DNA of 64,000 nucleotides from an uncultured Acidimicrobiia bacterium (GTDB lineage Bacteria; Actinomycetota; Acidimicrobiia; Acidimicrobiales; AC-14), in assembly GCA_963836205.1 (NCBI GenBank), contig CAWIIV010000012.1:96001-160000 (forward strand), written 5' to 3'. The first letter of the stretch is position 1, and each line of letters opens with the position of its first letter. Below are positions 39,160-41,271 of this stretch, piece after piece. The notes below the pieces were generated by a model that saw nothing but the letters and a program-made list of their open reading frames with translations, had not been told where the DNA came from and ran no database searches. A program made the translations under genes and the position numbers.

Positions 39160-41271
39160 ATGGCGACGCTGGCCGAGCTTCGAGCCCGCAGCGAGACCCT
39201 GTTCACCGAGCTCTTGGAGGTTCAGGAGAAGAAGGCGCCGGCCAGACGTCGGGCGGGGGCCGCGCTCGCCGGTCCGACCCGAGGGCCGGCAGGGGCGACG
39301 TTCTCGTGGTTCGACCCCGCCGACGCGGTGCAGGCGGCCGCCCTGTCGTTCCGCCTGGCCGCGCTCACCGGCACCAAAAAGCGGGTGAACGATGCGCTCG
39401 CGGCCGCCCTCGACCACGCCGACGAGGCCCGCACCGCGGCCCATCCCGAGCTGGTGCGGCAAGGGCTGGCCATGTTCGTCACCCACAACCGCGACGGTCG
39501 CCGCCTGGCCAAGCCCCGCACGGTGGTGGCCGCTCCCGGGCTGTTCCGTCCGCCGGCGGTGCGAGCCTCCAGGGGCCTCGGCATCTCGATCGGAGGGGCG
39601 GCCCCCGGCCTCGACTACTGGCGGGAGGACGCCCTGGCCAACGAGCACCACCAGCACTGGCACGAGGTCTACCCCTTCTCCGGGCTGCCGCCCCGTGACT
39701 TCCGCGAGTGGCTCACGACGACCCCGCGGTCCGACATCGCCGCCGTCCTCGAGGGGCTGTCGCCGGGTGGGAACTGGGCCGCCCGGGTGCAGAACGCCAC
39801 CGTCACCCAGCTGTCGAGCTTCTTCTCCCAGACCGCCACCGGGGAGGCCATCGGCAACCTCGCCCCCCCGCTCTACCGCCTGCTCTTCAAGCTCAACGAC
39901 CGCCAGGGCGAGCTGTTCTTCTACATGCACGAGCAGATGCTGGCCCGCTACGACGCCGAGCTGATCTCCCACGGTTTGTCGCGGGTGGGCCCGTTCGGGC
40001 CGGGCCAGTGGTCGAAGCCCATCCCCGAGGGCCACGACCCCACCGACATCACCGGCTTCACCCGCCGGGAGCCCAACCAGCGCCTCGGCGCCAGCGCGGT
40101 GAGCACGCTGCGCACGCTGGAGAAGGAGATCACCGACGCCATTACCGCGGGCTCGTTGCGAGGGTCGACTGCCGCGCCGGTGGCCATCGACCGCACCAAC
40201 CTGGGGGAAGCGGCGGAGGCGGCCGTCCGCCAGCTGCGCGACACCGACCCCAACGCCTACCGGGGCCTGCACAACATCGGCCACGGGCGTATCGCCGCCC
40301 TGGCCGTCGACGGTGAGGGCGGCGTCATGAACAACCCGGTGGCCGCCATCCGCGACCAGGTCTTCTGGCGCTGGCACAAGCACATCGACGACCTCAACGC
40401 CGACTGGCAGAACCGCCAGGCCCCGGCGGACTTCCGCGACGGACCGCCGGTGTTGATGCGCAACGGCCTGGCCGCGGGGTCGACGACGGCGTGGGCCAGT
40501 CCCGACATCATCCTGTGCCGCACGGCCGACCTCCCGGCCACCGGCCAGGCCGCGCTCGGCGAGCGGCTGTTCGGAGGGGCGGCGTGGGACACCGACTTCA
40601 CCGCCGCCGGCCAGGCCACGGCGGGCGGCACCACCGTGCCGACGGTAAGCGAGCTCACGACCTCGATGGGGACGGTGCCGTTCCGGGGCCGGCCGGTCCG
40701 CTTTCTCACCCACGAGCCGTTCTCCCACTTTTTGCGCCTGGAGAACACGTCGAGCGCCGACTGCCAGGTCACCGTCCGCATCTTCCTGGCCCCGTCGGCG
40801 CCAGCCGGCCGCGATCGGCGGACGTGGATCGAGATGGACAAGTTCCTCCTCACCGTGCCCGGAAGCACCCGGCTGGTGGCGTACCGGGCCGACTCGGAGT
40901 CGTCGGTGGTGAAGCGGCCCGTCGACACCAGCCCGGCGGAGGTCCTCGGCGGTGGGAGCGGCCCCGACGAGGACTCCTACTGCGACTGCGGCTGGCCCTA
41001 CACCCTGCTCCTGCCCCGGGGCACTACCGCCGGGCTTCCGTTCCGGCTGATGGTGCTCTGCTCGGATGCGGCCCTCGACCGGGTGCCGGCCCAGGCCCAA
41101 TGCGGGTCGATGAGCTGGTGCGGGGCCGTCGACCGCTACCCCGACACCCGCGACATGGGCTACCCGTTCGCCCGCCCCTTCGCCGGCTCGGCCGCCAGCG
41201 CCATCCGCGACACGATCGTCCGCCTCCCCCACGCCGCCGCTCGGACGCTCACCATCCGCCACCGGGGCTGA
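39160..41271 (+). CDS. Arthropod-type hemocyanin/prophenoloxidase-like type-3 copper protein
   Basis: YWRED..EHHQHWHEVYP, DRQGELFFYMHEQMLARY, LHNIGH, AIRDQVFWRWH, HEPF, TVRIFLAP, IEMDKF, ESSV, CDCGWPYTLLLPRG, YPDTRDMGYPF. Confidence 0.88.
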   Translation: MATLAELRARSETLFTELLEVQEKKAPARRRAGAALAGPTRGPAGATFSWFDPADAVQAAALSFRLAALTGTKKRVNDALAAALDHADEARTAAHPELVRQGLAMFVTHNRDGRRLAKPRTVVAAPGLFRPPAVRASRGLGISIGGAAPGLDYWREDALANEHHQHWHEVYPFSGLPPRDFREWLTTTPRSDIAAVLEGLSPGGNWAARVQNATVTQLSSFFSQTATGEAIGNLAPPLYRLLFKLNDRQGELFFYMHEQMLARYDAELISHGLSRVGPFGPGQWSKPIPEGHDPTDITGFTRREPNQRLGASAVSTLRTLEKEITDAITAGSLRGSTAAPVAIDRTNLGEAAEAAVRQLRDTDPNAYRGLHNIGHGRIAALAVDGEGGVMNNPVAAIRDQVFWRWHKHIDDLNADWQNRQAPADFRDGPPVLMRNGLAAGSTTAWASPDIILCRTADLPATGQAALGERLFGGAAWDTDFTAAGQATAGGTTVPTVSELTTSMGTVPFRGRPVRFLTHEPFSHFLRLENTSSADCQVTVRIFLAPSAPAGRDRRTWIEMDKFLLTVPGSTRLVAYRADSESSVVKRPVDTSPAEVLGGGSGPDEDSYCDCGWPYTLLLPRGTTAGLPFRLMVLCSDAALDRVPAQAQCGSMSWCGAVDRYPDTRDMGYPFARPFAGSAASAIRDTIVRLPHAAARTLTIRHRG

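Follow-up and report, generated by a model that had tools for sequence, protein, structure and literature searches.

An uncultured Acidimicrobiia bacterium carries a gene for a copper protein of the kind known from arthropod blood. The gene lies on a 64,000-nucleotide stretch of its genome (contig CAWIIV010000012.1, positions 96,001 to 160,000; 'the window' in what follows), at window positions 39160..41271 of the forward strand. Its 703-residue product, P0001, is assigned to the arthropod-type (Hemocyanin_M plus Hemocyanin_C, β-subclass) type-3 copper proteins and not to the MelC2-type tyrosinases. Genes for its bacterial relatives stand repeatedly beside protease genes, or are fused to them, and often beside a gene for a metallo-β-lactamase (MBL) fold hydrolase of an anti-phage type. 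On this basis we propose, giving the proposal about an even chance, that the family consists of latent cytoplasmic phenoloxidases activated by proteolysis, probably as an output of protease-triggered conflict modules.

Assignment of the window gene

The open reading frame (ORF) is intact, starts with ATG and is preceded by a Shine–Dalgarno-like sequence. Its GC content at third codon positions (GC3) is 0.93, on par with the neighbouring genes, and the regional GC content of 0.71–0.73 matches that of its flanks. A sequence-only reading made beforehand had described exactly such a gene, intact, with a ribosome-binding site and host-like high-GC codons. It had also listed a series of motifs (HHQHWH, GELFFYMH, LHNIGH, RDQVFWRWH, HEPF, VRIFLAP, IEMDKF, ESSV, CDCGWP and YPD..MGYPF), all of which are found in the translation. 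Scans for sigma-70 promoters and intrinsic terminators around the gene found none. The features of the gene are as follows.

39150..39154, + strand: Shine–Dalgarno-like GGAGG, 5 nt before the ATG
39160..41271, + strand: P0001 gene, 703 codons for amino acids
39160..39609, + strand: N-terminal all-helical domain (about residues 1–150), from the model and a weak alignment with domain I of scorpion hemocyanin
39301..39312, + strand: placeholder Phe motif F48-S-W-F51
39646..39663, + strand: CuA motif H163-H164-Q-H166-W-H168
39676..39894, + strand: insert of about 70 residues between the second and third CuA histidines, from sequence alignments
39928..39930, + strand: H257, third CuA histidine, in GELFFYMH
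40216..40218, + strand: E353, candidate general base
40270..40377, + strand: CuB site, LHNIGH plus RDQVFWRWH
40705..41199, + strand: Hemocyanin_C Ig-like domain (residues 516–680), from Pfam

Against Pfam, P0001 matches Hemocyanin_M at 85.5 bits (cut-off 20.8, E=4.6e-24) and Hemocyanin_C at 78 bits (cut-off 26.4, E=9.7e-22). The match to Tyrosinase (PF00264) is marginal, at 23.1 bits versus a cut-off of 22.6, and covers the CuB region; the NCBIfam MelC2 model stays below threshold, at 15.9 bits versus a cut-off of 450. The scores thus agree with the earlier view that the protein is arthropod-type and not MelC2-type. That view had also named all three of the domains Hemocyanin_N, M and C: the hidden Markov model search returned the latter two, and for Hemocyanin_N there is no Pfam match at E<=1. 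The missing match does not exclude membership of the β-subclass, because the N domain is described as an arthropod-specific signature (PMC3730353). No MelC1-type caddie gene is present beside the P0001 gene, as had been remarked, its neighbours being a divergent MurJ gene upstream and two tRNA genes downstream. Among proteins of solved structure, those closest in sequence are Limulus hemocyanin II (6e-53, 183 bits), scorpion hemocyanin and the Manduca and Anopheles prophenoloxidases (PPOs), with the fungal protein AsqI more remote (phmmer, 1.3e-24).

Predicted fold and conserved residues

The AlphaFold2 model of P0001, built with 23 homologues, has a mean predicted local distance difference test score (pLDDT) of 81.9 and a predicted template-modelling (TM) score of 0.84, and P0001 is accordingly predicted to fold into the same three domains as Limulus hemocyanin and insect PPO. 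The top Foldseek match of the model is Limulus hemocyanin (PDB entry 1oxy; E=1.1e-32, target-normalised TM score 0.79), followed by insect PPOs and AsqI (E=1.7e-26); the matches listed to rank 42 are solely hemocyanins, PPOs, hexamerins and AsqI, with probability 1.00. Structure prediction, which the sequence-only reading had put forward as a check, therefore favours its assignment. The Ig-like C-terminal domain that it had proposed corresponds to the Hemocyanin_C match and to a β-rich domain modelled from about residue 484 to residue 702. Its statement that a signal peptide is lacking is also borne out: residues 4–23 do not read as a signal peptide because they form a confidently modelled helix of domain I, in which L14, F15 and L18 are invariant in an alignment of 23 sequences.

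Residue conservation was assessed over 68 bacterial homologues. The six copper-ligand histidines (H164, H168 and H257 in CuA; H371, H375 and H406 in CuB) are kept in 67–68 of them: H168, H257 and H375 in all 68, as is H163, and H164, H371 and H406 in 67. The spacing conforms to the rule for β-type CuA sites, in which the first two histidines are four residues apart and the third is distant (PMC3658974). In the C-terminal part, the cysteines C608 and C610 of CDCGWP are present in 67 of the 68 homologues, and C648, C654 and the YPD motif in all of them. The insert of about 70 residues in CuA is absent from Limulus hemocyanin and from five inspected homologues of other clades (from a cyanobacterium, an acidobacterium, Chitinophaga, Brevibacillus and a Conexibacteraceae metagenome-assembled genome, MAG).

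Two further features resemble those of insect PPOs. F48 and F51 occur in 66 of the 68 homologues and are gapped in the other two. The FSWF motif that they delimit aligns with FSCF of scorpion hemocyanin, and its counterpart in a cyanobacterial homologue (L039) is matched to FSCF in Limulus hemocyanin and to FSLF in Anopheles PPO8 (AgPPO8), whose second Phe is the 'placeholder' F99 (PMC4700666). Just ahead of F48, after the first helix, residues 26–45 form a low-confidence, variable loop that is basic and rich in Arg. E353, present in all 68 homologues, aligns through L039 with AgPPO8 E364; this equivalence comes from sequence alignment, the numbering offset having been checked against F99 and H383. 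In AgPPO8, E364 is the general base for phenol deprotonation, and the E364Q variant loses 89–93% of both activities (PMC4700666).

Compared with the known members of the class, P0001 shares with the chelicerate hemocyanins (Limulus II, PDB entries 1oxy and 1lla; scorpion AA6, 3ixv) the three-domain fold, the six copper histidines, the F-x-x-F motif, the GELF.YMH, CGWP and YPD motifs and the absence of a signal peptide. It differs from them in its low identity (about 23–24%), the CuA insert, the missing Hemocyanin_N match, its bacterial host and its occurrence as a single copy. The placeholder Phe and the conserved Glu base are shared with insect PPOs (Manduca, 3hhs; Anopheles PPO8, 4yzw; Aedes PPO6, 8jib). 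AsqI (5yy2 and 5yy3), from aspoquinolone biosynthesis, has the same fold outside animals and works as an enzyme, not as a carrier; it is a ring-contraction enzyme crystallised with Zn and encoded in a biosynthetic cluster (PMC6053404), whereas P0001 has the full set of copper ligands plus the Glu and lies in no such cluster. With the MelC2-type or α-subclass tyrosinases P0001 has in common the type-3 dicopper centre and the NCBI name 'tyrosinase family protein', yet its CuA histidines are spaced differently, it has extra N-terminal and Ig-like domains and it lacks a caddie.

Authenticity and distribution of the family

From about 10 kb upstream of the P0001 gene through the gene itself, a synteny of more than 10 kb, the window is 83–92% identical in nucleotide sequence to L002 and L003, two Acidimicrobiia MAGs of independent assembly, in which orthologues with 84% and 76% protein identity, respectively, occupy the same position. 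Between P0001 and the L002 orthologue, the nonsynonymous and synonymous distances are dN=0.096 and dS=0.446 (dN/dS about 0.22), which points to purifying selection on the gene. The host genome is itself a MAG, 88.6% complete, with a single copy of the gene. The gene is neither contamination nor a recent transfer from an arthropod. As a side remark, in L003 (8001-10104) a tblastn alignment spans residues 1–703 and the longest ORF covers only residues 210–703 (491 residues), which may reflect a frameshift or an assembly error.

A word-indexed search gave 238 matches. The 120 listed are near-full-length or full-length (491–821 residues, 47–87% identity) and all have both hemocyanin domains, most of them spanning the whole query; the few source names among these listed matches read 'hypothetical', 'hemocyanin-like protein' or 'tyrosinase family protein' and point to Acidimicrobiales and Solirubrobacterales. 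An exhaustive search of representatives clustered at 50% identity yielded 827 clusters at E<=1e-3 and 283 at E<=1e-30, and at least 150 clusters score at least 204 bits with P0001 as the query, versus 183 bits for the best arthropod structure. A scan of 185,579 species (one genome each) confirmed 141 relatives, and 79 loci were kept. These loci cover at least ten phyla: Actinomycetota, Chloroflexota, Acidobacteriota, Bacteroidota, Cyanobacteriota, Pseudomonadota, Planctomycetota, Gemmatimonadota, Myxococcota and Bacillota. Cultured hosts include Pseudonocardia asaccharolytica DSM 44247, Mycolicibacterium stellerae, Mycobacterium sp. ACS1612, Chitinophaga arvensicola DSM 3695, Brevibacillus dissolubilis, Leisingera sp. 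D0M16 and Petrachloros mirabilis. A search seeded with the cyanobacterial member adds Rhizobium, Agrobacterium vitis, Neorhizobium, Sphingomonas and others, and a copy is found on two Rhizobium indicum conjugative plasmids. Rhizobium etli MelA was considered as a characterised member and found unsupported: tblastn of the Rhizobium family member P0370 against 72,556 plasmids, a collection not checked for the R. etli plasmid, matched only the two R. indicum plasmids.

The family is nevertheless rare and patchy. Among the kin of the host, in samples that include many incomplete genomes, it occurs in two of seven genomes of the same genus, in four of 36 of the same family (those two and the unpublished G408 included; three of 35 without G408), in none of the 24 genomes sampled from other families of the order, and in one of 400 other genomes sampled across the phylum. 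A maximum-likelihood tree was calculated for 68 bacterial rows, after nine fragmentary or frameshifted ones (L003, L028, L031, L046, L050, L065, L071, L074 and L078) had been dropped. In it, P0001 belongs to a well-supported clade whose 25 rows include 23 from Actinomycetota. The phylum labels change 18 times on the tree, compared with a minimum of nine and a mean of 31.3 for shuffled labels, and some pairs join different phyla (Leisingera with a Chloroflexi MAG; Kofleriaceae with Vicinamibacterales). The tree thus speaks for vertical descent inside clades combined with horizontal transfer across phyla.

The comparison with eukaryotes uses bit scores only, the tree being bacterial throughout. 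Bacterial homologues score at least 251 bits against P0001, versus 183 for the best arthropod protein, Limulus hemocyanin. The cyanobacterial member reaches 270–271 bits against Anopheles PPO8 and Limulus hemocyanin, in an alignment that runs without a break from the placeholder motif through domain II, and 266 to >1,400 bits (median 332) against the 67 other bacterial members; in the search that it seeded, the organism names among the at least 120 matches listed are all bacterial, most rows being nameless, and a search for longer proteins gave no match, a weak indication. The divergence within the family is therefore close to its distance from the arthropod proteins, which makes a recent arthropod source unlikely and is compatible with an ancient transfer in either direction.

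The sequence-only reading had offered two explanations for such a gene in a bacterium. An old, ameliorated horizontal transfer, taken as a one-off event into this host, is unsupported in view of the wide family, the conserved synteny and the dN/dS of about 0.22. An unrecognised bacterial lineage, the other explanation, fits the 141 relatives in at least ten phyla, the clusters that outscore every solved arthropod protein, and the synteny. It was also right that the clade is regarded as essentially eukaryotic in the published view (PMC3658974, PMC3730353). According to the two surveys, both from 2013, bacteria have only the α-subclass and the β-subclass arose on the unikont stem (PMC3658974), and Hemocyanin_M is 'likely a unikont synapomorphy' (PMC3730353). 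No description of a bacterial arthropod-type hemocyanin lineage was found in the literature searched, which excluded subscription journals and supplements; in this sense 'unrecognised' stands. The novelty is smaller than had been assumed, because the proteins are already public as 'tyrosinase family protein' or 'hemocyanin-like protein'. What is new is not these deposited members, with their uninformative names, but a bacterial lineage that contradicts the eukaryote-only distribution, and its linkage to proteases and MBL-fold proteins.

Gene neighbourhoods of the relatives

All ORFs of the 79 loci were clustered, and jackhmmer searches were seeded from each type of neighbour. Protease counts refer to 76 of the 79 loci, L015, L040 and L067 having no usable best ORF. 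At least one of four protease types is present in 41 of the 76, and every best hit lies within 3 kb, in flanks that reach 8 kb; of the 56 loci whose flanks measure 4 kb or more on each side, 36 have such a protease.

The four types are unrelated. A thermolysin-like protein of about 570 residues, here called B, occurs in 19 loci and has an invariant HExxH...HExxxD motif; its Peptidase_M4 match is just over the cut-off, and its model (pLDDT 77) retrieves M36 and M4 protease folds at probability 1.00. S8 subtilases are found in 12 loci. Trypsin-like proteases occur in six, one of them in a 723-residue fusion with Endonuclease_I (L053, 5732-7903) that lies 11 bp upstream of the hemocyanin-like gene of a Conexibacteraceae MAG, and another, in the same position in L058, with the conflict-system adaptor EAD1. 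In seven loci from Acidobacteriota and Myxococcota, caspase-like C14 proteases lie directly downstream. The MBL-fold protein, here called A (about 440 residues, 22 loci), keeps the HxHxDH, D and HH motifs, and 12 of 13 members match both the NCBIfam Avs1a model (best E=1.6e-46) and the anti-phage 6A-MBL model.

The hemocyanin-like gene is followed in L002 and L003 by A and B on the opposite strand and then by tRNA-Gly and tRNA-Pro. Likewise, A lies beside the hemocyanin-like gene and B beyond it in 12 further loci, downstream on the opposite strand in nine and upstream on the same strand in the other three (L004, L056 and L059); the order of A and B is reversed in L014 and L061.

The link is closest in three single polypeptides in which Peptidase_S8 is followed by Hemocyanin_M and Hemocyanin_C (1,156–1,239 residues, from the longest ORFs of L033 and L035):

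L033, 6294-10013: S8–hemocyanin fusion of Leisingera sp. D0M16
L035, 7-3477: S8–hemocyanin fusion of a Chloroflexi MAG
P0148: S8–hemocyanin fusion from a metagenomic cluster

The Leisingera fusion is a stand-alone gene with a ParD-like antitoxin gene on one side and IS110/DDE transposases on the other, and neither an MBL nor another recognisable effector was found beside it, a sign that the copper protein may itself be an output. On the R. indicum plasmid NZ_CP054035.1 (L085, 131934-145229), RefSeq annotates an S8 peptidase, an MBL hydrolase and a 'tyrosinase family protein' in this order on one strand, overlapping or closely spaced. This MBL is homologous to protein A (hhalign, 99%), and the operon lies about 1.2 kb from a gene with a Shedu SduA domain, with ligD and imuA nearby.

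Protease-associated MBLs have been described as zymogen DNases that are licensed by trypsin-like, caspase-like or S8 proteases and act against phages (2025 preprint, PMC12642450). The present loci resemble these Avs1a/AVAST modules in combining an Avs1a-matching MBL with an S8, trypsin-like or caspase-like protease. They differ from them in the thermolysin-like protease and the type-3 copper protein, neither of which figures in the main text of the preprint, where the words tyrosinase, hemocyanin, phenoloxidase and copper do not occur at all. A tyrosinase or hemocyanin component of defence systems was likewise not found in the literature searched, again without subscription journals and supplements.

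A conserved protein of about 230 residues with a hydrophobic C-terminal part follows the hemocyanin-like gene in L073 (9842-10558) and in seven other loci, six from Bacteroidota and one from Pyrinomonadaceae. It shows a weak, sub-threshold match to MerC; the idea that this small membrane protein is a PpoB2-type copper chaperone was unsupported (BLASTP E=0.40).

The window locus and its host

The 3,056 bp that contain A and B in L002 and L003 are missing from the window, where 27 bp separate the P0001 stop codon from tRNA-Gly. We read this as the loss of an ancestral A/B pair by deletion. The surrounding features are listed below.

37422..39068, − strand: lipid II flippase MurJ gene, divergent upstream neighbour, syntenic in L002 and L003; no functional link seen
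41272..41298, no strand: deletion scar, 27 bp between the P0001 stop codon and tRNA-Gly
41299..41447, − strand: tRNA-Gly(TCC) and tRNA-Pro(TGG); flanking pair shared with the L002 and L003 loci

The host genome keeps two distant A/B pairs, 35–43% identical. One lies on contig C15 beside the gene of a sigma-70-family sigma factor (Sigma70_r2/r4). The second, which lies some 70 kb upstream of the window and has its B paralogue at C12:26841-29033, is convergent to a classical tyrosinase gene (C12:23090-24691; 533 residues, PF00264 with E=2e-34, plus DUF7868) and a PpoB2 copper chaperone gene; the tyrosinase, the chaperone and the convergent A and B together occupy C12:23090-29033 (L083, 4090-10033), and an S8 subtilase follows 1 kb further on. 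Both kinds of type-3 copper oxidase thus occur with the same A/B pair, which points to phenoloxidase chemistry as the common denominator.

Elsewhere in the window, a short Phage_integrase fragment (ORF 41391-42200) lies downstream of the tRNA pair, followed by a weakly PIN_10-like ORF (42949-44058), an ISL3 transposase (46407-47333, − strand) and an ISAZ013-type transposase (47779-48804); the GC content drops to 0.64–0.67 between 41391 and 49100. Since 44060-49096 has no counterpart in L003, the insertion sequence (IS) elements are recent arrivals. Upstream of the cell-wall genes, positions 33407-36114 encode a 542-residue protein with AAA and Peptidase_M41 domains (FtsH-like), a MerR regulator and an NADPH-dependent FMN reductase. 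Two long overlapping ORFs on opposite strands at 31545-33390, of 578 (−) and 499 (+) residues, both have high GC3 and no Pfam match and are rival candidates for the real gene.

Proposed mechanism and alternative explanations

The sequence-only reading had thought of a cytoplasmic phenoloxidase or O2-binding protein. The strongest clue to function, the recurring protease and MBL partners of the relatives, was out of its sight, as was their loss from this copy. In the mechanism that we propose, P0001 would bind two coppers and domain I would put the conserved F51 over the dicopper site, making the protein a latent zymogen. Limited cutting by a partner protease, most likely in the exposed, disordered loop that precedes F48, would open the copper site. 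Enzymes of the thermolysin type cut N-terminal to bulky hydrophobic residues. With O2, the opened enzyme would then oxidise phenols or tyrosine(s) to reactive quinones. In most relatives the activating protease would be encoded next door or fused, often together with an Avs1a-type MBL hydrolase, and the window copy, having lost its own A/B pair, may be served in trans by one of the two paralogous pairs. More speculatively, the oxidase would be, together with the MBL nuclease, the output of a protease-triggered conflict module. We infer this role, like copper loading, phenoloxidase activity and proteolytic activation, from the combination of conserved residues and neighbours: an adjacent or fused protease, along with an MBL of a type that elsewhere is a protease-licensed DNase, makes the family a probable conflict-module output.

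The parallel with insect PPO is close in part. Insect PPO is cut by limited N-terminal proteolysis, upstream of the placeholder, which stays in place (PMC4700666), and the bacterial family is tied to proteases in the genome. The insect activators form a serine proteinase cascade (PMC11818254), whereas in bacteria a thermolysin-like, S8, trypsin-like or caspase-like protease is encoded next to the copper protein or fused to it. The bacterial proteins would share the latency of insect PPO; the P0001 copy has no adjacent protease.

Several observations weigh against the proposal of a protease-activated oxidase. The P0001 gene has neither a protease nor an MBL neighbour in the window, and hence no Avs1a-type module, so that the mechanism is extrapolated from its relatives, and no PADLOC model matched either P0001 or the B protease. 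Twenty of the 56 well-flanked loci have none of the four protease types, and the counts, which keep the best hit per family per locus, amount to an internal near-versus-far comparison with no genome-wide background control. In some of these 20, from Pseudonocardiaceae, the hemocyanin-like gene is followed by that of a Ferritin-like PF12902 protein (697 residues; L017, 10152-12245, and related loci), with a halogenase-type FAD enzyme nearby (L020, 3138-4478), a context that suggests secondary metabolism, unlike the protease modules. The Arg that forms a salt bridge with the catalytic Glu in AgPPO8 appears, from the motifs, to be Gln or His here, and the fungal relative AsqI is a Zn-dependent, non-redox enzyme (PMC6053404). 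Lastly, an extra fused partner in the published protease–MBL modules is usually a sensor (PMC12642450), and the hemocyanin-like protein could be one as well.

Some of these points favour a housekeeping or secondary-metabolic oxidase, serving a melanin-type pigment, phenolic detoxification or natural-product tailoring, with the protease acting in mere pro-enzyme maturation, as in the latent plant, fungal and Verrucomicrobium tyrosinases, and with no role in conflict. The Pseudonocardiaceae loci and the biosynthetic function of AsqI fit such an oxidase. So do the A/B pair beside the host's classical tyrosinase and PpoB2, where it may be a maturation system, the known bacterial tyrosinase with an inactivating C-terminal extension (PMC10526336), and the position of the P0001 gene among ordinary cell-wall genes. 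Yet no conserved biosynthetic cluster surrounds the clade that includes P0001, and a metabolic role leaves unexplained why the MBL partner is of the Avs1a anti-phage type, why four unrelated protease classes replace one another and carry EAD1 or endonuclease domains, and why members lie on a conjugative plasmid beside Shedu or between an antitoxin gene and IS elements. We therefore consider it a possible but rather unlikely explanation. A sensor or regulatory subunit, whose dicopper site or Ig-like domain would sense O2, redox state, a phenolic or an invader protein and switch on the protease that licenses the MBL nuclease, has the architecture on its side: the published modules are fused to diverse sensors, with 20 'uncharacterized types' and more in the subtilisin and caspase clades (PMC12642450), the S8–hemocyanin fusions have a protease-plus-sensor layout, and the operon of S8, MBL and hemocyanin-like genes already has its effector in the MBL. 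The Leisingera fusion, however, has no MBL or recognisable effector alongside, the invariant catalytic kit with its general-base Glu would be superfluous in a pure sensor, and a classical tyrosinase can occupy the same place by an A/B pair, all of which makes a sensor distinctly unlikely.

Two further explanations can be given little weight. That P0001 is a true bacterial hemocyanin, for O2 storage or transport, would agree with the chelicerate hemocyanins being its best matches in sequence and fold and with the conserved, substrate-blocking placeholder Phe; but the Glu base for phenol oxidation is invariant, the gene is single-copy whereas oxygen carriers are as a rule made in very large amounts, O2 transport would be of no obvious use to a bacterium of 4 Mb, and the protease linkage would have no rationale, so that we hold a carrier to be very improbable. 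An artefact, be it contamination with DNA of an arthropod or another eukaryote, a chimeric contig or a transfer from a eukaryote in very recent times, might be suspected from the eukaryote-only architecture of the two surveys (PMC3658974, PMC3730353) and from an incomplete MAG as the source. Against it stand the host-like GC and GC3, the ribosome-binding site and the higher scores of the bacterial homologues than of the best arthropod protein, and it is effectively refuted by the same gene between the same neighbours in two independent MAGs and by the cultured isolates that carry family members.

Significance

A deep and diverse bacterial family with the complete architecture contradicts the published eukaryote-only range and reopens the question of the origin of hemocyanins and prophenoloxidases. 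We tentatively suggest, as a doubtful reading, that the class may be an old bacterial invention and not an early-unikont one: a protease-licensed toxic oxidase of anti-phage or programmed-death modules, from which the arthropod prophenoloxidase cascade, with its protease-cut zymogen and its reactive quinones lethal to invaders, would draw its bacterial ancestry, P0001 being an orphaned effector. If true, the cascade would join cGAS–STING, gasdermins, TIR domains and caspases as animal immunity of bacterial ancestry. The family also offers soluble, signal-peptide-free bacterial proteins, several of them from cultured strains, for studies of the latent-to-active switch and as oxidases for biocatalysis. 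Its pairing with proteases and MBL-fold hydrolases suggests a testable prokaryotic counterpart of the protease-activated phenoloxidase that typifies the innate immunity of arthropods.

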